This document shows positions 1 through 30,380 of a DNA stretch of 37,230 nucleotides, piece by piece. The DNA lies in assembly GCA_000320545.1 (NCBI GenBank), contig ADNK01002977.1:1-37230 (forward strand). Direction: 5' to 3'. The stretch comes from Bigelowiella natans CCMP2755 (Eukaryota; Protista; Cercozoa). The notes under the pieces were generated by a model, which worked only from the letters and a program-made list of their open reading frames with translations, did not search any database and had not been told where the DNA came from. The first letter of the stretch is position 1; each line of letters opens with the position of its first letter. The position numbers were made by a program, and so were the translations under genes.

Positions 1-2369
1 CTTGAGCATTACCAATATTTCTTCGTTCTTCACATCGAGGCGTTGCTTCTTCTTTGGTCGTCTTCTCTCTTCATCTTCCTCTTTATCACTTTCCGAACCA
101 TTGTAGGAGTCTTCCTCTTTCTTCTCTTCTTCACGGGAAGTACTACTCCTCCTCCTACTACTACTACCACTACTACTATCCATACTAGTATTATTTCTAA
201 GCGATGAAGCGATCTTGAATATGCGAGTTCGACAAAAACGGCTGTCAAAGCTTTCCGCTGCACCTTTAAGAGTTGTGCGATGCTTATACCTAAGACGGAA
301 GAAGAAAAACAAGAAGAATAAATGATGAGGAGAATATGAGGCTGGGAGAGCACGGCTAGTCAAAGAAACCACAAACACTTGCAAGGTGTATAACTTCGAG
401 GTTGCTGCTAATGGCGCAGCTCGATGGTAGCAATGGTAGGTGTATAATCAAATGAAATCGAGGACAAGAAATACAATTATTTCACAACACACCCTGGGAA
501 TTGCTTTTCGTCAAATAACCTCATAGCATGGACACGAAAACTGAACAGAAAACAGATCAACAGTCAGAGTTTTAATTATTGTAATTTTTACGAAGCAACT
601 TGGAAGATAAAAATCCTTATTTCTAAAATCAGACAAGCACCAAGTACATAGGCCTCCCCTCTAACCCTACTAATATTCTCTGAACACTTTACTTGCACAG
701 AGGCACGGAGGAAATTCTTAATGAAAAAAATAAATGTTGGCTTATACATTTCTCTAATTTTCAAAATATTGACACAAGATTAGGCTCCCTCTATACAACT
801 ATCTTCGCTGTGCTTTCCCGGAAACATCAAGAACTTAATGCTGGCTAATTTTCCGAAGCTAGTAACTGCTACTTGGAGTACCCCGCAGTAGCAGCTTGTT
901 CCTCTATCTTCCAGTTGGAGTACGGAGGCTTGTCTCTTTTGGAAAATGGACAAATGAATTTTTAGTGGTAGTGCGGTAAGGAGGGTAAAATAAAAGTTTA
1001 AAAAAAAAGTAAAACAATGATGAAGAAAGAGAAAAAAATAACAAACAAAGAGCAGGATCAGGAAAAGGAAAGAAAGAAAAAAATGGAGAAAGCAAGAATA
1101 ACAAAGTATTCTAAAGAAAGTATAATTTTAAACTAGCAATATTTCACCGTAACGTCACATGAACCTCCCCGTTGGGAATAATGACGTGCCTCACTGAAGA
1201 AAAAAAGTCACGCAAAAGCGCCTTGTTTACGTGAACTCCTGAAACACACGACGAAAAGATCACCCACTCCGGTCATTAAATGAATGCTGGCAACATTGTA
1301 AGCATCTGCCATGCAACTCCCTATTGTATATCTGGGTATTACGTTATAAGCATCTGCCATGCAACTCCCTACTGTATATCTGGGTATTACGTTGTTGCCC
1401 AGAGTGTGGAAAGTTAAAGATCACTCGAGCAAACTTCGATTGCGAGAGACCCCTCTTTTTGCACACAAAGCACAGAGAGAGGCGTCAGTATTTTGCCCCA
1501 GTACTGTAGTATAATAACTTCTTGTTGTACAGAATGAAATGATGATGATGCTGCATCATCATTCGTATTTAATTTTAACTAACATGATGATGATGATGAT
1601 GATGATGATGAATCATCACTAGTCGTATTTAATTTAAACTAACATAATGATGATGATGATGATCCATAATCACTAGTCGTATTTAATTTAAACTAACATG
1701 ATGTAGAACCATGGTGTGGAGCTTTCGGCAATCGATTCCATGCATGACAGTCGCCTAACAAAGCAGCATACCATAAATAAAAAACGTACAACTTACTTCT
1801 CATCCTGGACCATCATAATATGCTTGGTCGTTACCTTATATCTCTTGATTTCAGTTATAATCATTGCAGCATTGGAATACTTTCTGGAAATAACATCCTG
1901 AGGCAAATATCGTATTTGAACTGGGAACGTGTGCTGGTGATCTGTGTGGAACTAATAAGTACCGCCGTGTCATACGAAGTACAAACTATGCTGGAACCAT
2001 CCCTCCGAGGTCTGTAAATAACAGAAAAGTACACAACAGCATATTATAAGAAAATACGGCCCTGGTGTGACTCTCTTTCCATTCTCTCTTAAAACAAATC
2101 ATCGACCTAGATCGGATTAGGCCTCTGGAAAAGGAGAAATCCCCGTCCCCGACCACAAGGATTTTCGCTATGCATGTTTTGTTCTCTTCCTTTATCTTAG
2201 ATTGGGATTTCGCTTGACCAGAGAATTCCTTTTTCTGACGGGAATCAATAGATTCTAAGGGATCGTAACTCTTCTTATCCTTCTTTTTTGACGAGGAGGG
2301 TCTGAACTGTCTCTTGTTCAGCTTTCTCCTGTCCGCTTTTCGCTTGCGAGCGCGATCCCGTTTTCCCAT
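1..2369 (-). CDS. BMT5: 25S rRNA (uridine-N3)-methyltransferase BMT5-like / DUF2431 protein; about 9 exons; 3' end runs off the window
   Basis: ATG at 2369. Exons joined at GT-AG give KILVVGDGDFSFSRGL (2107-2369), IVCTSYDTA, DVISRKYSNA, VMHGIDCRKL, FARVIFNFPHSG, VNKALLRDFF..GEVHVTL (1148-1238), KPPYSNWKIEEQA, FDEKQFPG, YKHRTT and then an acidic/basic tail. These are the DUF2431 motifs in order. Confidence 0.9.
1301..1393. repeat. 48-bp tandem duplication at a 5' splice site
   Basis: agcatctgccatgcaactccctaYtgtatatctgggtattacgtt starts at 1301 and again at 1349. Confidence 0.95.
1540..1703. repeat. Three ~60-bp intronic tandem units containing (GAT)n
   Basis: tcgtatttaatttWaactaacat occurs three times, separated by gatgat runs. 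Confidence 0.9.
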
Positions 2370-2489
2370 GAAGAGGAGACGATTTGTGTTTCCGAGAGTC
2401 CTTCTGTCTGGTTCCTCTTCCTCTTCGGCTTCGTCTTCGCGCCTCCTCCTTCTCCTTCTTCCTCTTCGAACAATGGGAATGCGTTGAGT

Positions 2490-4440
2490 CACAACGAAAC
2501 CGGGATTAACACCGACAGTGACCGGTGTTCTTGTACTCGAATGTTGCCTTCCCATGATGTTGCGCAGAAAGAAAGAAATCATGCTCTCTTTGTTCAATGT
2601 TTTTTGCATGATCATCATGATCCCCGCACAAAAGACAATGAAACTAGGAATGGAGGAGTTGGACATCCAAGACACCTTTTCTTCTGACTGCGTTTGCGTG
2701 TCACGCAACACTTTGGAAACGTCAGTCGTTGGAAAATGGACGAGGATTTCAAACGAGATCTTCAAGCTCCTCGTTGGCCAAAGTGCTATTCTTGATTCCT
2801 TCTGGTTTCACTGGTTGCTCGAGTTTGGACCTCACCAAAGTCAGTTCGAGGCACTGCGTTTCGCACACTGCAAGTCTTGTCACACTTTGGAAGTGGGTTT
2901 TTCATCATTGTTCATTGTTCAAGTGTCTTCCAACGTTTTGGAAGTGCAGCTTGTCACCATTGTTTCATTGTTTCGCACATTGGAAATGTCTTGCAACACT
3001 TTGAAAGTGCAGTCAATCATCGTGTTCACCTGTTCGTCTGTTTCGAAGTTTCTTTCTGCTTCTTTCTTCCTTCTGAGAACTTGACAAGGACGTTCATTCT
3101 TCGTTTGCTGCGCCGTTCCTCTCCACTTTCAGTTGCGCTGCCTCACTGCAGGCACGCACGCCAACTTTGCATCGTGCTGGTTCTCACACCAGAGAGAGCT
3201 CTGAGGCACTGCGTTTGGCACTTTGCAAGTGTCATGCAACACTTTGAAAACGCAGTCGATCACCATGTTTCTTCCTTTCTTCTTTGTTCGATTCTTTCTT
3301 TCCTCGTTGTTTTCAGCTCGAGGCACTGCGCAGTGCGTTTCACACTTTGCAAGTGTCCTGCCACACTTGCAAGTGCAGTCGAGAGACACTGCAGACTGGT
3401 TCTTGTTTCGTTTGGTGATCACCTTGCTTCACGTTTCGTTCGTGCCATGCGTCTCCTTTTTGCTTGGTGTCACTTCACTCACTCATTCACCTCAAGACCT
3501 GCACACGATTCGACACCCAAAACCAGCAAAAAGCAGTGCACACGACACGCCGCCAGCACGAAACATCATGAACGTCTAGACGTGCCAGCAGGGCCATTCC
3601 AGCAGTCCAGCAGTGCACGCAGTGAACCACACACACCTCTAGACCTGTGTGCGAGGGTTGCGGGCTGACCACTGACTGCAGCTGACCTTCACTTGCACAC
3701 GCACAACCTCGCTAGCTCGCGCAGTGCTGAAGTGCCAGAGTGGTCTCATCAGCTGCAAAAGCTAGCAAGTGTGCACCCGCATGCGCACCACGCACGCTAG
3801 CACGCTGCTAGGCTGGTGGATGCACACCCAGCACATCACAGCTGTGGTTGACTACCACGTCCACTGATGTGTCGTGCACGCCTAGACGCGCACGCGTCAT
3901 TGCTGGTGCACGTGCACAATGGTTGCGATGCTGGCCTGCACGCGTGTCATTGCTGAATTGCGGGGGGCCATCTTTGCCACGCTAGCACGCTCAACGTACG
4001 TGCTTCGCACACATGTTTGTCATCGTCTCGTGTTGAACGATCAGTGTGCATCACCTCTGCCAATCTCTTAGATCTAGCTAGCTAGACCTGCTGAATCATG
4101 CTGCACGGTGAATCGAAGATGCAGCTAGTGGACATGCAATCATGCCAATGTGGCAGCCTGTGCATACACTAAAACAAGACAACAGCACATGCATCAGTCA
4201 TGCCACATCGACATCTCAATTGAGCCATTTGCAACGTGTTGAAAATTGGGAATGTGTTTCAACAATGAGTGTGTAGATGTCAACACGATTTGCGGTCGAA
4301 ATCTCTGGAGTAGCGGCTTTGCACACTCGATTGCCACTGTATTTTCTGCAATCAATGAAACAATCATGCAAAAAACAAGTAATGGAGCCATGAACTAATT
4401 GCCACACTCGTCATTGGTGAACGATTTTCTGCATTGCGTT
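2490..4440. other. TpA-depleted, TpG/CpA-rich intergenic block 1
   Basis: No TA in 2789-3576. Only six TA in 2789-3852, all within CTAG. CpG is retained. Overlapping long ORFs contain no Tyr. Confidence 0.9.
2699..3382 (+). repeat. Dispersed ~30-65-bp repeat, about 6 full or partial copies, quasi-palindromic core
   Basis: Consensus gaggcactgcgtttc..acacWtTgcaagtgtc..gcaacactttgRaagtgcagtc at about 2699, 2848, 2920, 2970, 3203 and 3320. Confidence 0.8.
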
Positions 4441-4471
4441 CGCAGAGCATCGTCATCTCTTCTTCCGCTGG

Positions 4472-5843
4472 TTAGTGGCTATTCTCCGAAAGCACACGCT
4501 TCCCAATTTCCCCAACAACACGTTCCGCACTTTCTATTGCACCGTTAATATATCTACAAATTAACAATACAAAATGATCAAAAGGCTGTACCATTAGCGA
4601 AAGCATAATCATGATGATCATAATACCAATGATGACGATGTGGTAATGGGATATAATGATAAGACGATGCATGTACTGTTGCATTGGTAGGTATCATCAC
4701 TTCCTACTACTACTGCTAATATACTACCCAAAGCCATCTAGCGCGTAATCTGCTCCTGCCCAGTATATTCTTCCTAAAAACAAAGATGATGATGATGGTA
4801 TGATTGATGCACATGAAGATCGATGATCACATTAATGCGGATATTAGCACAGGAACAAAAATCTGAGACTTTTGCTCACTACAACAGCAACTACTTAACT
4901 CGAGAATCTGTTTAGGTGCTATTATTGCATTCAGATTATGTCCTTCTGCGAATGAAATCAAAATATGTGCTAGATGAAAACTATAAATCGTATCCTTCCC
5001 ACCAAATGAAGAACGAAGGGCGTGTCCGTACTGAAAGATGAATGAACAACAGTGTCATTGGTGTGCGTGTGCGTGCGTGTGCGCGCGCGTGTGTGTTTGT
5101 GTTTGTGTGTGTGTGTGTGTAATGCTTCGTACAGAAGAAGCAAAAGAAAAGGAAAGGACAATTTCTTTTGTATGAGTATGTGTAAGTGTGCTATTTCGAA
5201 TATTTCTCACGTGATCAAATCTAGCCAAGTAAGAACATGATCAAGTATCTCACTCATAGACAAAACATCGAACATAAATATTCGAATTAACGATTATGGC
5301 ACCGTTACCATCACCTGTGTCCACACTCCAGGAGGAAAATAAGAACTGTACGCGCCTCCTATATGCCTACAATAGGAAGAATTAAATAAGAAAAGAAGAA
5401 GAGTAAGGAAGAGAAAGAAATAGGGTATGGAGATGACTAGCTGGTTATGTATAGGATATAGTAACTGCCCAAACTAAAAAGTGAAGGATCAACAAAGAAG
5501 ATGAGGAAGAACATGATACAGATCGATAGCGGGAGGGAGGGAGACATGAAAAAAGTAAAATATCATCATACTCCTGGGCTGCCCAATTAAAGTCGAGATA
5601 CTCTGTGGCCTCCTCTTTGGCTTCCTCACCCTAAGTAGTATCAGCAGCAGAAACGGAAGAATATACTTCAGTTTGAACACCAACAACACATTGGTCTCTA
5701 TGTCGTCTATTGCTACTCTGCTCACCATAATCACTTAATTGGGCAAGAGCAACAGGACAGTTACACGTAGTGAAGAGAATGATAATGATGACGATGACGA
5801 TGATGATATTAATGATGATGATGATATGATGATGATGATGATA

Positions 5844-6045: not shown

Positions 6046-8411
6046 TATGAAAATGCTATTCATTCCCCTAAAATAATATAAATATACGAACTCTTTCATC
6101 GTTAGATTTCATTCCCAAAATAATATAAATATACGAACTCTTTCATCGTGAGATTTCTCCATAAGCTTTACGCTACAATCTCCCTCCAAGAAGCACAACA
6201 AAACCTTTTTTAAGGATGATAATCAGTAACGATCATGCAGGTAGTGAATCAGAGGTATGGAGTGCGTTATCCTAGTATTCGTCGTTGTTGTTGTCGGTGT
6301 AGCCTGTAAGTTTTTAAAGTGAATGAATAAATAATGACCCCTTTTTTTCCTGAGTAGGGGCTATTATCAAAGCAGTTTGAAAGCAGGATAGAAGAAGAAG
6401 AAGAAGAAGAAGAAGAAGACGCAGAATTTTTTAGTGTCTGCTGCTGCCCCTGCTGCTTCAACTCCTTCGGAATCTGAATACGTGCTTGCTCTTTCTCTTC
6501 TATTATTTCCTCCAGAGAAATGTTAGTAGAGACGGATGCCAGGACAGTGCCGCTCCAACCCTTATCCCTCCAAAATGCCCTTTTTTATATGAGTTTTAAG
6601 AGAAAGAAAGCAAAAATATGAGTGAGAAGTAGAACGAAGAGCTTCAAAAGAGTAGTGGGAGGAATAATGAAAAGTATAATTTATTTTAGGTTTATGGTCT
6701 ATTAATCTCATATTCATTCCCCTCCTCTTGTCGTCATTCAATATACCCCATCATCGTCTTTACAGTTTTATCGCATACTTCTCAACCATCACTCTACCTT
6801 GGAAAAATGGCCTGGAATTTAACCGAGTTACCCTGCAAACAGCAGTTACGTATTGTCGTTAGTCGTCTAGCAGATGCTTTATATGTGCTAAGTTTATGAA
6901 GTCTCTCTTAGAGTCACTACTACTACCACTACTACTACTACTACAAATCTACCACTCCTTCTACATACTACCATTGGAAGGCGCTGAAAAAGCTGTCGTT
7001 TATCATATGGTAGGGGCGGTTTGTAGATGATACCCAACCCTGTCGTAGGTGGTGGGCCAGTGACTATGGCATATTTAGCCCGAACAGTAAAGAAGGTGGT
7101 GGACGAAGATGGTGTTGGTAGTAGGGATGAAGAAGCTTCTTTTTCCACGCGAAATGTTATCCCTGATTCATCTTGGCGTATTTCGCGCACTGGAGATGAC
7201 AGATGGACTGTAGAGCCAAATGGTCTTTGAGACATGAGCTGAGACGCAATTTTCAGCGGGGGTGCTTGGGTACCTCTGTAATAGTTTAGTTAGCAGTGGA
7301 ATAATGAATGATGAGGGGGGTGATTGATCCGCAACGATCTTGCGATAATGATATATTCGTAGTATATCTACTACTCATTATTACCCCCTAACACGGTATT
7401 GCTGCTCATTTACTACTAGGTTCTCCAAGCCTCCAGCAGCTCGGATGTAGAACAGGATATGTAAGAATGAAACTACAGATGGGGATTGCGCGATCTAATT
7501 GCACCGAAAAAAGGATGAGCAGAGAAATTAGGAAACAGAAGCTTAGGATCGTGACTCAATGCATTTTTCTGGAGTAAATAATACTTTTTCTCATAATTTT
7601 TTGAATATACCATAGTCGTACAAAGTACAGCTAAGATAGTCCTAGACTCCCGCAGAGAAACTGTCGCATTGATCCATGTCTCGAATGTCATTGAGTCCCA
7701 TTCCACGGCCCCGGGAGAACTTTGTGGATTTTCTAAGTCCACAGAGGTTTGGAGTGTCTCCAAAATCTGGGCTGCATGTCTCAACTCATCCTGAACAGGA
7801 CTGGGAAGCTGCTGAAATCCGGATATAAGATCTGTGAAATTTTTCCTTCCCTCCGAAGTGAAAATCACTGAATTTCCGTCAGAGGGAGTGTATCCAGCAT
7901 CGAACACCTAAAAAGGTAAGATACGTCATAGAAATAAAACGAAGAGAAATATCTCATTTAAAGATGCATCTTTCTGCAAGTTATTGAACACCATCACTTG
8001 AAAATCTTGGGGGAAATAAATATCATTAAATGGTATTGCTTTCTTCAGCATGAAGGTGCAGACCTCAAATCCTAATTCTTCAACGACAAGACGCCAGCTG
8101 TGAGGTTGAACGGTTTTGTTCCCTAGCCACTGACCACCCAATTCGACAACATCATCATTAGCGACATCTGGTCTCTGAATCGATGTATCCCAGTTCTTTG
8201 TACGTCCCCCTGTTGTGTTCGAAGCCTCCAGTACCCGTACTGACAATCTGTGTCGAGTTGTAAGGAAGTGCGCGGCTGCCAATCCCGCATAACCGCCTCC
8301 CACAATAGCAACATCACATAAGATCTCCTCCTCAGCAAGAGATTTGACAGTAGATGAGGCTATCAAGCCGATGAAGAGGACAAGCGAAGCCATGCTGCAC
8401 TCCATCGTCAT
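4472..8411 (-). CDS. Flavin-containing amine oxidase (MAO-like) with a probable N-terminal signal peptide; about 13 exons
   Basis: DVAIVGGGYAGLAAA..VLEASNTTGGRT..VELGGQWLG; WDSMTFETW; VSFLHILFYIRAAGG; QRLPMGNSVK; AFWRDKGWSG; FNWAAQEHIGGAYSSYFPPG; GRIYWAG..GFGYINGAIESAERV; TAA at 4472. Confidence 0.92.
5775..5876. repeat. (GAT)n microsatellite in an amine oxidase intron
   Basis: Seen directly. It explains the poly-His/Ile ORF 5631..5990. Confidence 0.95.
6061..6157. repeat. ~47-bp tandem duplication spanning an exon end and 5' splice site
   Basis: aaaataatataaatatacgaactctttcatcgtKagatttc occurs twice. Confidence 0.95.
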
Positions 8412-8829: not shown

Positions 8830-11392
8830 ATGGGGGCTCTTTGCTTCTGCTGCGTTGGGGAAGGGGGGCAGATTGACCGTGTCATGGACCGGTTTCCCCT
8901 TATTGCACTCTCCAAAGCTAAGATTGGGTTTGTTGTCAAGGCCGTTGGGTTAGTTCTCGCTGTGTTTGTGTTTATCAAATCGTCGTCGTACTATCTATCT
9001 ATCAACTTATCAATTCATTCGCATCCAATTATCTCAGGCATGTGTTGCCCGACCAGCTCTCAGGCGCATTAGTAGGCCCTGTGACCGGGAGGCCGTGTGT
9101 TTTCTATCACATTATCATTACAGAAAAATGGGTTGAAAGAAGCATGGTTAACAATCAGGTCGATCACTTCTCCAAATCATCATTCCGACACCGCATTGAC
9201 TACCATTTTCCTCTCTCTTGTCCGTAGGTCCAGGAGCGCAAAAGATCAAGGACTGTGGTGAACGAGAAGCGTTCTGTTGACTTTTGGATTTGCGATGGCA
9301 CCTCTAGAGCGTTTGTGCGCGGATCATTGCTAGCAAATATTCGAATTCGAACAGTCAACGTTCGCAAAGGAGGTGTCCCCTCTGCAGCACAAGCTTACTA
9401 CAACCGCGGTGCATTTGGTGGGGGAGCCAATCCGTATGGAAGAAACGCATATAATAGACGCGGACAGCCAATGTATATGGGTGCACCTCCCGTGGCAAGT
9501 CTGGGATTTTCCAGGATTCCAGGGCGACAGTATGAATCAGAGGAGAAGGTGATTGAGGTGAACGAAAAAGTCTCAGTTCTTGGCCACCTCGTCGATCAAA
9601 AAGCGTCACAAGGCGCGCTACCAACGATGATACCTCTGAGCAAACAAGCAATAACTGGAGAGTATATGGAAAAGAATGAGTGGACAGACTGGGACAAACG
9701 TTCATGGGCAGCGCTCACCAAAAGGTTGTAGTGAAGATTGTCGTCCAAATATGATCAGCATCAATATCATTGTAATAGACATTGTCACTTGCCAACTAAG
9801 TAGTATTTTTGGTATGATGGATGGTCAGAAGCCCTGTTGTGTTCGTTTCCAATCGCGATCGAGGTGTGAAAATGGTGCCAGTTCGTATGCCGCCCCCACC
9901 TCAGCTCACAGCCCAGCAACATCCACCACCATCTCACCAACAGCAGCAGCAGGTAGCAATAGACCGTTCTACTAATTGACAAGGATATATGTGTATTCTA
10001 AATATTCGCACAGTTTACTTTTTTTATCTCTTCATTTTGGACATTCAAGGATGTTCTGCTGTTCGTTGAATCAAGATTATTTTTACCTCACTTTGATAGC
10101 AACGTCGGGTTGAAAGCAAGGAGGTAAAATTGGGCAATATCGTTGTAATTCCAAGGGATAAAATCACAATGGGGAATGAGCTGGGCCGTGGTAACTTCGG
10201 GGTTGCATACCGAGCAACCTATAACGGTGGCACTGTCGTCGTGAAGGTTCGTCCATAATCACAAGGGAGATATGATGCCAGCAGATAATAATGGCGATGA
10301 ATTTTGTCTTATGACACATATTGCATTAACCTTTTATCTACTTCTGATCGTAGGTACCCAAGGTTGCCACTGAAGCAGATTTCCAAGAAATGGCAAGTTT
10401 CGCGCAAATAACAAATCATCCCAACGTTCTTACTCTTGTCGGAATGACGGATATTGATGGGAAAATGAGTTTTGTCACAGAGTTTTGTGCTCTAGGAAGG
10501 TTTACCTAATATTATGCGCGTCTACGATCCTGCACATTGCATGCTTCACAATCGCACAAATTTCTAATTATGTTCTATTTTTGCTATATTATTATCATAT
10601 CACATTATTATTAATAATATGTTATGCTTCACAGCTTAGATAGACTACACAATCGTAAGGATTTGAACATGCACACGGAGAGCGTTTTTTTGAGGATAGC
10701 TGGTGACGTTGGCAGGGGTCTCACTCATCTTCACAAGCTTGGAATTGTCCAAAGGGTCATTAATTTTCCACCTTGTGCTTTTACTGATGATGAAATATGG
10801 TTATAATGACATAGTTTTTCTCTTATCTACACAGGACATCGCCTGTCGCCACCTATTGATGGATCATGCAGGGAAAGTTTTGATTGCCGATTGGGGCCTT
10901 TCTCGTCGATTAAATAATGGAGTATACCAGCAAAATAACAGTGCTGTTGCTTGGCCGTGGGCTGCACCAGAGAGCTTGAAGACAGGGAGATTTACGCAGA
11001 AAACAGACATTTGGATGTTGGGTGTGACCTTCTTCGAGATTCTTTCCCAGGGGAAAGACCCATATGACTGGAGAAATTGCGACAGACGCATAGCGAGCAG
11101 AAACATTGTCGAGGGAAATCTCAAATTGGATGTTCCTACTGGTGCTCCTTATCTTCCTGGACAAATCATGACAGCTTGCCTAGCATTCAAGGCACGAGAA
11201 CGTCCCACTGCAGAACAAGTCGTCATGGCTGTGCAACAAAGAACTGTAACCGTTTTACAAATTTCAAAAAGCTCGTATGCTAACATTGGGGATCTAGAAC
11301 AAACAGGTTATGCCATTCCAGAGGACATCACGTATCAAAACGAGCAGAGACAAAAAGAAGGCCCTGAAGCTCCTTTACTAGAAAAACAATGA
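8830..11392 (+). CDS. Protein with an acylation-type N-terminus, a GIDE-like domain, a Pro/Gln linker and an atypical tyrosine-kinase-like domain; about 8 exons
   Basis: MGALCFCC; LVGPVTGRPCVFY..DFWICDGTSRAFV; LGRGNFGVAY..VVVK; HPNVLTLVG; VTEFCALGSL; IVQR|DIACRHLL..IADWGLSR; WPWAAPE; TDIWMLGVTFFE. Exon phases join both halves in frame. TGA ends at 11392. Confidence 0.85.
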
Positions 11393-11453
11393 GTTCCTCA
11401 TCTATCTACTTTCTTCCTGCTTTCCTGTATTATTCCTAGAGATGTAGATAGTA

Positions 11454-11507
11454 AAAGAGGAACACTGAGGAAACCTGTGCTCTAGGCTTGAAATTGGCGC
11501 ACGCAAC

Positions 11508-11544
<37 letters not shown>

Positions 11545-12400
11545 ATGTGTGCATGCGTGGATGGATGCAATGCGTGATTCTTTCAGCCAAGGATTTGTGT
11601 CCTCATCTCCCGCTGATTCCAATGCCAGAGCAGAAAGGTGCACTTGGACGAACTGCAGGACACCTGGCTAGCTGAAGACTGTTTGTCCACACCCAGGCAT
11701 GCTCTAGCGCTTCTGCGTGCGTGCAGTGTCAGCTCATGATTTTGGTGCGCCTTGCAGCGCGTGGTCGCCGCTTGCCAGTGTGCATTGCCGAGCGCACGCT
11801 TTTGCACCACCCTTCGCCAACCTTTGGGACAGGCCGTTCTCGTTGCTCCAGTGCTGCTCATCGTGCGAAGTGAGCTTCACTTGTTCACCTCGTTCCACTC
11901 GAAGAACGGGCCAGTCATGTGCCAGAGTGGTTTGCATGGCACTTGCCAGCTTGGGGACTCAACGTTCCCACGTGCGTGTGATGAAAAGAACGCTTCAAAA
12001 GTTCACAGAACAGTCTAGCAGTGGCAAGTCTCGAAAAGTGAAGTGGCCAGCCGCTTGACCTTGTTGAGCTTGCAGTCACCAACACGCCACTGCCAAGCTG
12101 TGTCAAGCTCCACGGCAGCAATTGCCTGTGCGTGGTGATCGATGCATTCATGCATGATTCTTCTCCACGTTCGTCGTGCGACGCGAACAAACGTGCGAGC
12201 TCAGAACTCCAACAATTTCCGCTGTTGACCATGTGATTTGTTGAGGACGGCAGTGTTGCTGCGACACAGAATTAGGGTTGTCGCATGGCAGAGAACACCT
12301 CATTCACAAGAAGGAATGGACCTCACTGGAAAATGATGAAGCCTCACATTTCTGATTGTCAACATCACTGTGATACGTTTGTGGCACGTTTCTGTTTGAC
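11454..12400. other. TpA-depleted intergenic block 2
   Basis: 11454-12272 has only four TA (11483, 11669, 11705, 12016), all within CTAG. Confidence 0.9.
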
Positions 12401-12604
12401 ACTTTGTTAACGAACTGTGCCGATAGGGGGTAGTAAATCTTTCATTCCCACCTTCTTCCATGCATTCTCCAGCCTATTCCCTGTAAAACTACTTCCATTG
12501 CTTCCATTCCACAACATGAAATCCTCATCTTGCTGCTTGAGGACCCAAACTAATGATGTCACAAATGGTTCATTAGACTTCGACAGAAAATTCGTCCTAG
12601 TCAT
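11664..12604 (-). pseudogene. Possible relic of a spliced gene degraded by TA->TG/CA changes
   Basis: Phase-consistent exon chain 12258-12197, 12125-12060, 11967-11889, 11853-11751, 11703-11664. It needs damaged splice sites. ORF 12407..12604 may be an upstream exon. No family recognised. Confidence 0.35.
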
Positions 12605-14289: not shown

Positions 14290-14559
14290 TTTTAATTGTA
14301 CTATATTTCCTTCCACTATGCCAAGCGTGCTGTTATGGTCAATCTTGGAACTGCGAACGTTGACACAGTGTCTGAAGGAATTAAAATTCCAGTTGCTGAT
14401 GCGGATCATGTGTAAATATAAGGCTATCACTGGTACCTAATTGTAACGTTGTGTGTCGACTATAAATCACATGTGTTGATGTTTGCGTTTAAAATTATAT
14501 GTTGAACATAGACTTAACAAAAATGAAGAACTATGCCAGCGTATTTTCCAAGCAGCATC

Positions 14560-15560
14560 ATTCTACGAGATGTCACATGCAGTACGACCAGACTCGCCAC
14601 AAGACATGTGACTACTGTGGGAGGTCAGGACTAGGGGAGTGCAAGATGCCTGAGCCATGCGCAAGGCTGGCAGAATCTGAGGTGCTCTAGTGCTAGGACT
14701 ATAGACACAGTGTGTAAGACAGATGTAATTAATCAATGAAATTTGCTCAATAGTCATCCTTGTGTAGCTGTGCAATGCAGCGGCTACAGCGCTAACATTA
14801 AATCTGTTGGTTTCAGCCATGATGTGTTTCATGCAACTGAATGCAGTGCACATTGCATGCATCATGATTATAGACACAGTAATGGCACATGCAACATGCA
14901 TATTACATGTCTATTATCATGGACATCGGTGTAGAGCTACCCGACCGCACAAAATTTTAGTGGTCTTTGATGGCACTCTCGTTTCACTAGTTTAGTCGAG
15001 CAAACACCTCAAGACGCATCCTCTAGTGCTGGCTAGCTGGCGCACAGAGCAGCACAAGAGACATTGCATGCTGCTAACAGCTACTGTGCTGTCACTGACG
15101 CCTTTGTCTTGCACATCCAAACATGCATGCATTGCTAGATTGGCTGCAGCTGACATCTCTATAGATCTGCACATGTCTAGATGTAGCAGTAATGCAAGAC
15201 TAACAAACGTCTCATTGCTCTAATTCGGGTAACATAGCTGTATATCGCACGCATTTCAGCACTGCATTTAATGATCACTAAATGCGAAGTGCAGCACTTT
15301 GTATTGTAGTGACCGAGAATGACAAGGCAAATTTTACTTCATGTGATTCAAAACGATCGAATGCAACATAATTGGACAGCACATTCAACTAGTTTGCAAC
15401 AGATGGGCAAAATCGAATGTTTCACATGCATGATTGCTAGCTCTGAGCTAACTTGACTACGCTGCCTCATAATGAAATTTTCTGATGAAAAAACTCATTG
15501 CACTCTCACTTTGTGCTTGTTGCATCATTTAAAAAACGAACATGACTACTTGACTACACC
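14560..15560. other. Partially TpA-depleted, TG/CA-rich intergenic block 3
   Basis: Dense tgca, catg and ctag words. Many remaining TA are in CTA or TAG context. Confidence 0.7.
14705..14841 (+). repeat. Dispersed repeat, inverted copy of 22946-23082
   Basis: tgtagctgtgcaatgcagcggctacagcgctaa is identical in the reverse complement of the other copy, and the flanks align. Confidence 0.9.
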
Positions 15561-21800: not shown

Positions 21801-22521
21801 CTGGAGGTAATTTATCGCTCTCAGCGTTGCGTCAGCAATTGAGCATCATGAAGACGCTCGGATATCTCTGGGAAAATAAGCTTATATTTGGACCTATTAC
21901 CTTTTTCGTCGGAATTCTAATCTTCAGTCTAGGATTTCAAGTGTATACAATGATGACTTCAGTCTTAACCAGTCTCATTTGGGGCGGTGTTGCTTTGAGG
22001 AGTGCACGGGCTGTAGCTAATAAAGAGGCCAGTGTGTGCTCAGCAACCATTGCATTCTGGATTCTTGCACAGCTTTTAGAAGTATTATTAACCAACCAAC
22101 AAGAGTGCCAACGTCATCATCATCATCATCATCAATAGAGTTAACATCATATTCGTTTTACCTAAGGCATCTGTTTGGGTCCCTGTCGCTGGAAGCATGA
22201 TCAGCTTGTTCAAACCTGTTCTATTACCAATTTTTTTGGCGATTGGGGACGAGGTACATTATATTATGTTGTAATTAGAAGGTACGATTGAGATTGATGT
22301 CGATACGTGTTCATTTCTTAGGTGCTTAAAATTGCACTCACGTTGTTGGGTGAAAACTACAATTATTTTGCTGGAACTTGCGCCGCGGTGTCGGTAGCTT
22401 ACATCTTAAATGTAGATTAGGAATTGACGCAATTATCGCTCGCATCGCAACGAAAATGTCGAACATTTTATTCCCGGCTCGGTGTATCGCTGCTACATAT
22501 ATTAGTGTGAAATGGTGTTGA
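18179..22521 (+). CDS. Multipass membrane protein with two degenerate TB2/DP1/HVA22 (REEP/Yop1)-like segments; 3' end uncertain
   Basis: Hydrophobic exons flanked by GT-AG. Segment 1: VAPTFLSLHAF..DLWLSYWSCWP..LCIWLQFWYGS. Segment 2: GVALRSARAV..IAFWILAQLLE..VWVP..FKPVLL. The family call rests on motif resemblance only. Confidence 0.65.
18774..18885. repeat. Compound (TA)n(TG)n microsatellite in an intron
   Basis: Perfect TA run 18774-18836 followed by a TG run. Confidence 0.95.
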
Positions 22522-22679
22522 GAATTTATTTGATGTAGATGCATGTACACATGAGATTAAGTGCCATAATATATCGATAAAGCACACTAAAAGAAACTTT
22601 GTAAAGCACATCATAGTATGATGATGTGAACTACAGCTTGTTCGGTCTTTGTCACCGATTAGCTTATTAGCTTCCGCCT

Positions 22680-23416
22680 GCGTGCTGCATGGCAGTTGCT
22701 TAATTCGTTCGTTTGGCAATGGATGATGAGCAATGTGTACAAAATCAATTTGCATGCTCAACATGTTATTAGCATTATCAATGCACAGGGCTACGCTGGC
22801 AACAATAGACACAGTAATGTGACACACATTAGGATGACCATTGAAACAATTTGAACATTTCATTACATCCGTCTCACACATCATGCAATAATAGACACAG
22901 CAATACACAATATATATAATATATATTATATACATAGAGGACGCTTTCAATTGCATGAAGCACGTGGTGGCAGAAACCAACAGATGTAACATTAGCGCTG
23001 TAGCCGCTGCATTGCACAGCTACATCAGGATGACCATTGAAAAAATTTAATTCTTCATTACATCCGTCTCATACATAGTGTATTGCATGTCTATCATTGC
23101 ACACATTACATTGCGCATGTCCATCATGGCAAGGTAGCGATTCGTGTCATTGTATATATGTAGCATGGAATGTGCGAACACTCATGGGCGGGCCGCACAC
23201 GTGCAGTGCATCAGCTGCTTGTTGTGCCATCGCAGCACTCTGCCTGCTCAACCGGTACGTACAACAGAGAAATGATAGTCCATTATAGAAGTAAGATAAT
23301 CGAAACAAAACAATCCGATCGTATCGACGTCGGTAAACATTTCTGAACTTGCGCTCGCTGTAGAGTGTGCATCTGTCTCTAGATCTAGACACATTGATTA
23401 ACACATTGCATCCAGT

Positions 23417-26010: not shown

Positions 26011-29000
26011 ATGCAGTCGCCTGTCCTCGTCCTCAGTAATGGCCTAGTTTAGCATGATAGCTTCCGACCCCATTCCTAAAATTGTTGGCTATCCTAGTCA
26101 GATAGCTCATTTAAAAGTTTTGGGCAGGAATCACATATTTTTAGCGAGCGCGGTGTACCTGCCCAGATTACTAGTTGCGTGTTTTCTAGTTGTGTTTTCT
26201 TGTCACTTCTGTCGAGCGCCCTGACAGTACAACTTCAGAGTTCCACGACTATGTGTTTTCAGGATATTCTTCTTGTATTTGCGAATGTGCAACTAGAAGG
26301 AATAATTATATGACATAATTTATTACTTGAACAGACACAAATACGAAGCGAGAGCAAGGCCGCAAGGCTCAGCTGGGGAACATTGAAGCCGCAAAGGTTT
26401 GTGAGAAAATTGACTATTTGATTTTCATCTGATCAACTACTTTCATGCATAACATTGGAATGATTTCTCTGCAGGCTGTCGCGAGCATTATCCGTACCAC
26501 ATTAGGCCCTAGATCCATGCTTAAAATGATTCTTGACCCCATGGGCGGCCTTGTGATGACCAATGACGGAAATGCGATTTTGCGGGAGATTGATGTGTCT
26601 CATCCTGCCGCAAAGGTACACGCAGTAGCAACGACAGCTATAATACAGGCAGAATGAGAGAAACTCTAATGCGAATGAATCGTATCGTGGACTTCCTCCT
26701 GAGAATACGTGCTTGTTCTAATATAGAGTATGATCGAGTTGAGTCGAACCCAAGACGAAGAGGTTGGGGATGGAACGACATCTGTCATAGTATTGGGTGA
26801 GAAAATAATTTGAAGAATTGCGTTGATTATTATGTTGATCAATGCTCGAGTGTTGAAAATCCCACACTACCTACCTATACAGCGGGCGAAATGTTGACAG
26901 TTGCAAAGCCATTTCTCGAAGAAAACATGCACCCCCGAACAATTGTGGTATGTGAAAGTGTCTTGTATGTATCACACCATCGTCGTCATCATGATTCACT
27001 TCCACACCACCCTTTTTCCTCCTCCCCCCTCTAGATGTCGTACATCAAGGCGATGGATACTGCAATGGAAACTCTGGATAAAATTGCGGTGAAAGTTGAC
27101 CCTACGGATGAGAAAGAGATGATAAAAGTTATTCGCACTACTCTAGGTACAGCAGCAACAGCGTCGCTGGGGTTTTTCACCTTTTACTTTCAATGAAGAA
27201 TCAACATGACTATCGTGCCGCCCATTGGCAACATATCCATATGCATTGACACACTGCCCCCTCCCCCTTTGTGTTTAGGAACCAAATTCGTCAAGCGATT
27301 TGGAGATCTCATCCCCAAAATTGCCATCGAAGCGGTCCGCAAAGTTTCCGTCGAGGAGATGAAAACGAAGGTGATTGACATCAAGCGTTTCATCCGCGTG
27401 GAAAAGATTCCAGGTGGGATGCTGGAAGAGTCGGAAGTGCTCAACGGAATCGCCGTCTCCAAAGATGTTGTCAATCCGAACATGAGCCGACGAGTAGTCA
27501 ACCCCCGCATTGTTCTGCTTGACTGTCCCCTGGAGTATAAAAAGGGAGAGTCTCAGACGAACCTTGAATTCACTAAAGATATGGACTTTGAGCAAGGTTG
27601 CTATCATCATAACATACACATATAACAACATGTATGATGATCATCATCATCTAACACAATTCACATGATGCCACTTATGATCGCAATGAACAACACTAAT
27701 ACGCTAGCGACAAGCAAGACAAGAAATCTGATTGTAGTAGTGTATCAAGGCTGCTGCTGCTGCTGTATCCCTTCTGTTTTTTTTGCACTTATTCTTTGCA
27801 CTGATTTTTCTCTCCATGTAGCTCTTCGAATGGAAGAAGCATACATCCAGCAAATGTGTAAGGACATAATCAAAATGAAGCCAACCGTAGTCTGCACGGA
27901 GAAAGGTGTCTCTGATTACGCTCAGCACTTCCTGATAAAGGCTGGGATCTCTGTACTTCGCCGCTTAAGGAAGATGGACAACAACAGAATTGCAAGAGCA
28001 GTCGGTGCTACTATCATCAACGATCCTTCAGATCTCAAGGAGGAATATGTTGGCAAGAAATGCGGCCTATTTGAGATTCGAAAGATCGGTGATGAGTACT
28101 TCACTTACTTCGATCAGTGCAAAGAGCCAAAGGCGTGCTCCATCCTCCTCAGAGGGGCAGGAAAGGATGTGCTCAACGAAATCGAGAGGAATCTCCAAGA
28201 TGCAATGCATGTGGCCAGACAGTTACACATGGACCCTAGAGTCCTTCCTGGGGGGGGGGCTACCGAAATGGCAGTAGCGCAAGCTCTCATCAGAAAGGCC
28301 AAGACCATCAAAACCACCGAACAGAGGTACACCCATCATCACATATGTATATGGGAGGGGCAATCTGACAACAAACCTCATGACATCGTGATGATGATGA
28401 TGGTGATGATGATGATGATGATGATAGTGATGATAGTGATGGCAGGCTGCTCTCCTATCGTACTACTTTTGATGTGATGATGGTGGTGAGTTATAGCTGC
28501 TGCAACACCGTTCTCCTTATATATATGTAGTTATTATTACATACGATCGAGCCCTCTTACGTCGTGGTTGTTCCATACGATAGACTGCTCTTACGTACTT
28601 TTTCCTCCCTCTTACCTATGTTTTGTCCTTCGTTTTCTCTTCAAATAACAAGACCTTTCGAGGCTTTAGCTGCCGCATTTGAAGTGATCCCAAGAACTTT
28701 GATGGAGAACTGCGGATGCAAGATCATCAGGGTGATGACAGAGCTCAGGGCAAAGCACGCAGAAGGAAAAGAAATGTACTGGGGTGTTAATGGCAACACG
28801 GGTGAAATAGAAGACATGCGAAAGCTTGCAGTCCTTCAACCCATTAGTGTCAAAATGCAGACTTTGAAGACGGCGATCGAGGTGAGAATGATGAGAAAGG
28901 ATTGATATATTTATTACAGCAACTAATCATCATTTCGAAGAGCATTTTCTTACCATCATTTCTTTACATTTCGCATGAAAGCAACGATCATTCCAACAAC

Positions 29001-29468: not shown

Positions 29469-29539
29469 ATCATGTAGCTACACGTATACGCCTTGACGCA
29501 GCACTAGAATAATAACTGAATTAATATTGTGGATTATGA

Positions 29540-30380
29540 TAAAAATGGACTCGTCGCTAGCAGCTAGCTAGGTATAGCATGGTTGACTAATAGCCCTGCT
29601 TGCATCTAGATTTCTGGTAGTCAGCTAGTCAGGAACGCTCTAGACGCTGCGCTACCATCATATGCACCAGTGCAGTACATCGTTAATCGATCAGAGATTG
29701 ATCTATACATCGATACGTACATGCATGTGATTGTCTAGCTAGCTAGCTAGCTAGCTGCGCACGTATAGACGATGCACATCTAGCTATAGCTAGCTCTAGA
29801 GCTAGACACGCTGCGACACCAGCTAGCTAGCTCTAGAGCTAGCAGCAAAAGCGGGCTAGCGGGTTGGAGCATGCATGCACTGACCTCTATCTAGCTTGCA
29901 CGTAGCTAGCTAGCTAGCAGCTCTAGAGCTAGCTAGCAGCTAACAGCCATATGGATGAGAGGCGGCCGTTCATGAAACGTGATTTGCCATCAACAAGTCG
30001 CATGCAATAACGTAACAATGCATCTCGGCATCCCTCATCCACATGCTAGCATGGTCATCTATAGTTGTGGCAGCCGACATGACTGAAACTAAATGATGCA
30101 CGTCGAGCTTGCATGCTGCATGACAAGTCCATCTGCTAGCCATGTGCACACGCATCTTGTCTGCTGGCCACATCTGCATGGTGGACACATGCAACAATGA
30201 TTCGTCGAGTGCCATGTGCACACATGTCTGCTACACATCTAGACATGCATGGCTAGACAGCTGCACGGCTAGATGGCCTATCTGGACAAAGCAATCATGC
30301 CCTCGTGTGCACATCTAGATTCATGCGCAAAGGAATGTGGCTACATCCAAACACGTTCTGCTGTCATATCATGATGTGAG
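29540..30380. other. Intergenic block 5: (AGCT)n/CTAG-rich tract followed by TpA-poor, TG/CA-rich sequence
   Basis: gctagctagc arrays at about 29735-29756, 29821-29843 and 29903-29941. TA in 30095-30345 occurs only after C, mostly as CTAG. Confidence 0.75.

Follow-up and report, generated by a model that had tools for sequence, protein, structure and literature searches.

In two intergenic blocks of Bigelowiella natans nuclear DNA from which TpA has been largely erased, every TA left in the block cores lies within CTAG. We favour, with middling confidence, the reading that two co-targeted processes make CTAG the sole TA left: a TpA hypermutator that is slow at CTAG, and a C-to-T change at CC that refills it. 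TpA hypermutation is already known in this species; neither the CTAG exception nor the CC signature turned up in the published literature searched for a CTAG or CC mutation context in B. natans. The window, the whole stretch of 37,230 nucleotides that was analysed, is B. natans nuclear DNA and thus belongs to the host of TpA hypermutation. Its genes encode a BMT5-like protein, an amine oxidase, a kinase, a DHHC protein, CCT-gamma and a 5-phosphatase, and the next relatives of the CCT-gamma exon after its exact match (Table 1) are from Amorphochlora (82%) and Lotharella (79%).

Integrated viral DNA of B. natans has been reported to carry 231 de novo mutations (two insertions), almost all TpA to TpG or CpA, at a rate about 1000-fold above background; the same preprint describes 124 TA-poor clusters in the species and proposes an ADAT2-like deaminase, with Bn78255/Bn77986 as candidate (Mettrop et al., 10.64898/2026.01.13.699255). 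Its main text treats the dinucleotide only and mentions neither CTAG, CCGG, context nor flanking bases, although its supplements may hold context. Both blocks lie beyond its hypermutation cut-offs (Rho TpA at most 0.43, Rho CpA+TpG at least 1.52), with values of 0.17 and 1.62 in block 1 and 0.13 and 1.59 in block 2. A cluster in the preprint spans at least three consecutive 1-kb windows, a screening criterion and no mechanistic feature; the blocks, intergenic relics of about 1.6 and 0.8 kb with no evident viral origin, are shorter. The TpA mutator supposed in a preliminary description of this DNA therefore stands, given the hypermutation established in the species and the changes between LINE copies described below.

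Table 1 Features of the window and of contig L001.
Feature	Coordinates	Strand	Remarks
BMT5-like rRNA methyltransferase gene, 5' part	1989..2370	-	weak Pfam match, start inferred; borders block 1
Block 1, TpA-erased, intergenic	2560..4165	.	TA O/E 0.17, CA/TG O/E 1.62
High-copy dispersed repeat, left part of block 1	2600..3330	.	internal 60-120 bp sub-repeats
CTAG-dense right part of block 1	3576..4130	.	single-copy, GC 57%, 0 CCGG
Block 2, TpA-erased, single-copy, intergenic	11455..12270	.	4 TA, all CTAG; CCGG 0
5'-truncated LINE copy, ORF2 C-terminal end, high copy	14713..14844	-	tblastn 77% to L001 ORF2
Two LINE ORF2 3'-end fragments	22826..23081	+	in weakly TpA-erased tract 22500-23400
CCT-gamma exon	27824..28330	+	100% identity to jgi Bigna1 50665
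Partly TpA-erased single intergenic tract	29480..30330	.	34 CTAG, CC/GG O/E 0.45, CCGG 0
Near-intact Bigelowiella-type LINE	L001:219-5130	-	ORF1 489 aa; ORF2 1160 aa, endonuclease + RT

The two block cores, each bounded by the nearest non-CTAG TA, are the longest stretches of the window without such a TA. Recounting gives 6 of 6 TA in CTAG for 2788-3852 and 4 of 4 for 11453-12272, in agreement with the earlier statement that all 10 TA of the cores are in CTAG. Because the core limits were set post hoc, wider bounds were also tested: CTAG then makes up 17 of the 24 TA in the two blocks and 68 of the 1925 TA that lie beyond the marked tracts (Fisher p=4e-19), so that the context difference between inside and outside is borne out. 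Outside the marked tracts, TA makes up much the same share of the TA/CA/TG class in every context (C..G 0.31, half-sites 0.33, others 0.31). By context, TA remains in the blocks at 14 of 38 CTAG sites, 1 of 53 CTAA/TTAG sites and 0 of 21 TTAA sites. Within the right part of block 1 (3576-4130), 12 of the 15 TA are CTAG, the remainder being CTAC at 3853, GTAC at 3997 and TTAG at 4069, and none of 2000 dinucleotide-preserving shuffles reaches 12 CTAG (mean 1.64, maximum 6). Block 2, with a kinase gene on one side and the DHHC gene on the other, holds 4 CTAG at 11455-12420 against 0.56 in shuffles (p=0.001). A further TA-poor stretch, 27276-27495, was rejected as a block; it is a coding exon next to the CCT-gamma exon, contains no CTAG and serves as a coding-sequence control. 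ApT is low too in blocks 1 and 2 (O/E 0.65-0.71), with ACY/ATY 2-3 times background, which suggests either a weaker T-to-C/A-to-G activity beyond TpA or a GC-rich origin.

At the block edges, many surviving TA had been described as half-sites (CTAH, DTAG). Against a background of 0.34, this holds at the right edges (6 of 9 at 4131-4500, 5 of 9 at 12270-12500) but not at the left ones (1 of 5 at 2250-2560, 4 of 12 at 11300-11455). The excess can be attributed to CCA-to-CTA changes, which would supply such sites; CTAH and DTAG themselves appear not to be protected. Stranded RNA reads with a depth of up to about 10 cover 4162-4605, where TA reappears on the right side of block 1, and a transcript end near there may set the border of this block.

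A second signature, the loss of CC, is found in the same DNA. In contexts free of TA and CG, the odds ratio of CCY/CTY against DCY/DTY is 0.50 in the blocks (p=8e-6), 0.52 in the partial tracts and 0.56 in the 3' part of the LINE on metagenome contig L001, compared with 1.21 in the 5' part of this LINE and 1.03 in the rest. The direct CCY/CTY ratio also lies below background (p=0.003), and the CCG/CTG ratio is 16/109 versus 361/797 (p=7e-6). Block 1 has a CC/GG O/E of 0.54 and 0 CCGG against 6.6, and CCGG is zero in all blocks. At position 2787, the window reads CTAT where nearly all other repeat copies read CCAT, which supports the CC-to-CT direction. We read the deficit as the trace of a second process, which would change C to T at CC and be directed at the same DNA. 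Across 74 tiles, TA loss is weakly correlated with CC loss (rho 0.23, p=0.045) and shows no link with CTAG share. The CC deficit is not visible at the synonymous third positions of the 3' part of L001 ORF2, where the counts are tiny (5 CC versus 3 CT).

Two further observations concern related tetramers. CCGG is five-fold low over the whole window (16 versus 80; in exons 1 versus 11), and CCGG may therefore be methylated throughout the B. natans genome. AGCT is enriched and GGCC low (57 versus 12 in affected DNA, 118 versus 50 elsewhere), and AGCT is possibly a second sink of the CC-to-CT change. B. natans encodes a DNMT6 (PMC9998398), and no methylome or deaminase data for the species were found in the available parts of the literature searched, in which two methylome papers make no mention of it.

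The LINE on L001 is near full length and belongs to a protein cluster that includes a B. natans model. TA is almost absent from about 900 bp at the 3' end of its ORF2 (301-1200) and reaches normal levels towards the 5' end, with CC loss strongest in the first 600 bp. The gradient of TA loss would fit copy-number targeting, since 3' ends left by 5' truncation outnumber the other parts of the LINE. At synonymously escapable sites of the 3' part, TA persists at 3 of 6 sites of the CTAG class, at 5 of 39 half-sites and at 3 of 60 others; the corresponding counts further 5' are 2 of 7, 23 of 61 and 56 of 142. The CTAG exception is here seen a second time, independently though in small numbers and within a reading frame, on a contig into which several copies may have been collapsed.

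TA-linked changes are also seen between copies. Twelve near-identical LINE proteins differ from L001 by 27 distinct amino-acid differences, 11 of which are changes between TA and TG or CA, and some of the other 16 sit at fragment ends. None of the 11 falls at CTAG, a zero that is uninformative because CTAG offers only 5 of 206 opportunities. One LINE copy carries three TA hits in adjacent codons, CTAA>CCAA among them. In the block 1 repeat, at least 8 variant rows involve TA among the 38 analysed, these being taken from 40 of 87 rows after two single-run rows were dropped. TA-to-TG and TA-to-CA changes occur on both strands between copies, as in TpA hypermutation. In the listed contig pieces of runs X1 and X7, the single-copy parts show no differences from the window, the TA there being too few to expect any. 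The ATAG/ATGG and TTAG/TCAG differences mentioned in the preliminary description are present between repeat copies, and its caution that no single-sided rule is absolute was justified: half-site copy differences are of the CTAH/CTGH type at 6 sites and of the CTAH/CCAH type at 4, and they run both ways among copies (CTAA>CCAA and CTAA/CTGA).

These comparisons bear on a one-strand rule, in which A before G, or T after C, would be avoided, or TAY targeted, so that only CTAG is doubly protected. Half-sites do outlast unflanked sites in the partial tracts (0.28-0.37 versus 0.13-0.24) and in the synonymous sites of L001 given above, the CTAH/CTGH type accounts for 6 of the 10 half-site polymorphisms, and RTAY holds 8 of the 11 LINE changes (42% expected, p=0.04). 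The CTAA>CCAA change within the cluster of adjacent hits speaks against such a rule, as does the plentiful CCAH still found in the blocks (68 versus 85 CTGH), and together with the model comparison that follows this makes the rule quite unlikely in our judgement.

Rate models were fitted to class counts of the blocks, the partial tracts and the L001 3' part, with the rest of the window (or the L001 5' part) as start state, hand-drawn regions and overlapping sites treated as independent. The best model spares CTAG and includes the CC-to-CT change (AIC 2097.6). One-sided rules with the CC-to-CT change reach 2122-2129, that is 24-31 worse, and free rates by +1 base are 26-28 worse, so that the per-strand flank rule of the preliminary description (5' C or 3' G disfavoured) is a poor fit, and absolute one-sided rules were rejected. 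When the parameters are freed, the CTAG factor g is 0.03-0.06 and the half-site factors are 0.9-1.7. A TAY-only rule was rejected as the worst of the models with the CC-to-CT change (AIC 3250 versus 3177-3180 over ten contexts); under it the blocks should still hold about 16 CTAA/TTAG and 5 TTAA, and they hold 1 and 0, while a mild TAY preference is allowed (factor 0.63, 2.5 AIC). Multiplicative flanks give 2115, and sparing rules without the CC-to-CT change 2175-2184. A uniform mutator was rejected both without the CC-to-CT change (AIC 2269) and with it (2138; 20-24 lnL units worse), so that any acceptable fit has to give CTAG its own term.

Sparing and fast regeneration share one likelihood ridge, and static sequence therefore cannot prove sparing. 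The ridge runs from g=0-0.2 with m=1-3 to g=1 with m=5-8 (m being the CCAG reversion factor), all within about 4 lnL, and the profile optimum lies at a CTAG loss factor g of 0.05-0.2 with CCAG reversion 2-3-fold faster. At the far end there would be no sparing: a flank-blind TpA mutator would act everywhere, and CCAG/CTGG would revert to CTAG 5-8 times faster than other CC, through methylation then deamination or through a CC deaminase. We consider this alternative rather unlikely. It comes within 2-3 lnL of the optimum, and the high CTAG share of its class in CC-poor tracts (0.60-0.87 versus 0.31 background), the CTAG/CTGG differences between copies and the window-wide depletion of CCGG are all in keeping with it. 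It nevertheless requires the fast reversion to be particular to these sites: g=1 with m=1 is out by 24, a context-blind CC-to-CT change without sparing was rejected as it predicts about 4 CTAG in the blocks where 14 are seen, and no CCNG or CCWGG rule appears elsewhere. CCTG/CTTG (15/34) and CCCG/CTCG (6/20) resemble other CC, and Dcm-like CCWGG methylation was rejected, C preceding only 7 of 115 affected CTAG strands with CTAGG and CCTAG rare. The position of the optimum and the lack of special loss at other CCNG contexts favour sparing. The survival of CTAG, first presented as a usable enzyme fingerprint, is not yet a clean one, because the CC-to-CT change had been missed, and this change on its own would keep CTAG in place if CCAG/CTGG revert 5-8 times faster than other CC.

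CTAG is also denser than survival would leave it. In 3576-4130, base composition predicts 2.1 CTAG where 12 are present (9 with the tandem run masked), an over-representation that amounts to more than mere survival. Forward simulation by point substitution yields 2-3 CTAG per kb versus the 16-22 per kb observed. This region contains an exact 14-bp duplication (3793-3806 and 3978-3991) and a GCTA-type tandem of 3 units at 4074-4086; local duplication inflates its CTAG density, the duplication and the tandem GCTA runs account for part of the excess, and a GC-rich starting sequence may add further to it. In the tract at 29480-30330, the CTAG count exceeds the 3.3 expected and falls to 24 with tandem GCTA runs masked. 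GCTAGC/TCTAGA-rich tracts with tandem GCTA runs occur at 29480-30330 and L001:1-190, and such tracts are probably slippage expansions of the sole lasting TA-bearing unit. The left kilobase of block 1 has 1 CTAG versus 3.9 expected, CTAG numbers 1 versus 7 CCAG/CTGG at 2560-3560, and position 2813 reads CTGG in the window where 43% of the repeat-copy depth reads CTAG. CTAG is thus not fixed, being either open to mutation or not static.

The density invites a different explanation, in which the elements carry CTAG from the outset or under selection (as LINE-tail-like GCTAGC/TCTAGA tracts or a protein-binding site), slippage and duplication have multiplied it, and its presence says little about the mutator. 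The exact duplication and tandem runs, the shortfall of the substitution simulations, the strong 6-mer bias in affected DNA (G or T at 95 of 115 CTAG flanks) and the CTAG-rich 3' tail of the L001 LINE would all follow from it. It explains density but not exclusivity, however: block 2, with 4 dispersed CTAG, 0 other TA and a density as by chance, is left unexplained, as are the three CTAG kept in LINE ORF2 despite open synonymous escape. We regard it as very improbable.

A high-copy repeat forms the left part of block 1 and two tracts contain LINE ends, while 3576-4130 and block 2 are single-copy. The repeat at 2600-3330 is found in 345-483 contigs per DNA run, with a summed depth of up to about 400 times that of the flanks, and other copies have TA at CTAG and half-site positions. 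It gave no Pfam match, no protein homologue of near length and no Rfam match, and its degenerate motif had no match in the viral or metagenome contigs searched. Reads of one RNA run cover it with a strong strand bias, mostly from other copies. Among the contigs aligned, 3330-4165 is single copy, and neither 3576-4130 nor block 2 has a further copy at 80% identity that would show an ancestral state. The LINE copy at 14713-14844 lies within a partly TpA-erased tract (14540-15480), in which CTAG occupies 10 of 14 C-YR-G sites; its best-conserved part, 14764-14795, is a hairpin-like inverted repeat that keeps three half-site TA in more than 88% of the depth. The LINE-end motif matched 2 metagenome contigs and none of the viral contigs searched, and no viral locus was found for the LINE protein. 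An extension beyond 140 bp of the homology between the LINE ends near 14 and 22 kb (r14/r22), seen with CA/TG collapsed to TA, was rejected as plain alignment did not uphold it, and the 44 prokaryotic hits of an 18-base motif were set aside as fortuitous. TA is preserved in intronic tandem duplications of 47-60 bp (1299-1393, 1539-1703 and 6059-6157), so the process does not act on short tandem repeats within genes.

According to the reading with a slow-hit and refilled CTAG, repeats would be marked first, and a TpA mutator would then erase TA on both strands, through the A deamination proposed in the preprint or through T modification. The mutator's rate at CTAG would be about 5-20 times below that at the remaining TA contexts. 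A C-to-T change at CC, probably strongest at CCG, would convert CCAG, CTGG and CCGG to CTAG; CC-context cytosines would decay to T, with DNMT6 as a candidate source. What sets CTAG apart is that the CC-to-CT change leads both products of its mutation back to it; slow to be hit and refilled from both, it would become a sink, which slippage and short duplication might then multiply as the only TA motif that lasts. Because the sparing would need both flanks at once, a mark on the palindrome, or a joint block by -2 C and +1 G in the enzyme, fits better than a single-base preference. The putative mark may be a methyl group on cytosine or on adenine, and adenine so modified resists deamination of the TadA type.

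A bolder version, which we think improbable, is repeat editing by two enzymes, a TpA adenine mutator and a CC methylase or deaminase, both directed to the same DNA and spreading from LINE 3' ends, with a putative restriction-modification-like mark that would exempt CTAG by blocking deamination. If true, it would be a eukaryotic reverse RIP with a self-protection motif. The CTAG exception predicts what specificity the ADAT2/3 candidates should show in vitro, and the TpA process is seen to reach ordinary LINE copies, with a gradient. Should the two-process reading be true, the exception and the CC-to-CT change would together be a testable fingerprint for the hypermutator enzymes; the CC signature also bears on the coupling of silencing marks and mutator, as in RIP.

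RIP in ascomycetes is a repeat-targeted transition hypermutation with sharp borders and cytosine methylation, which makes TpA from CpA. The process described here likewise is repeat-targeted, dinucleotide-specific and sharply bordered, and differs in that TpA is destroyed, CpA/TpG is gained and no RID-type enzyme is shown; a RIP-type C-to-T change at CpA, which would raise TpA, was rejected on the same grounds. TadA/ADAT2-3 and ADAR deaminases convert A to G after a 5' T or U, as here. ADARs favour UAG, a preference opposite to the CTAG exception, and no single +1 base rule fits well here. APOBEC3G-type deamination changes C to T in a CC context; this, or 5mC decay caused by a DNMT, resembles the loss of C after C, strongest at CCG and confined to repeat-derived DNA, for which we infer both enzyme and direction. 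In the available part of a paper on a chlorarachniophyte virus, the motifs CANNNNNNTG, RCGY and TGCA are given and CTAG is absent. The closest counterpart is the TpA hypermutation of B. natans itself, with which the blocks share the species, TA-to-TG/CA changes on both strands and TA-poor, CA/TG-rich patches; LINE (endonuclease-RT) sequences are affected here, as in the Pfam enrichment of the preprint, and the CTAG exception, the co-located CC-to-CT signature and the 3'-to-5' LINE gradient go beyond what its main text describes.
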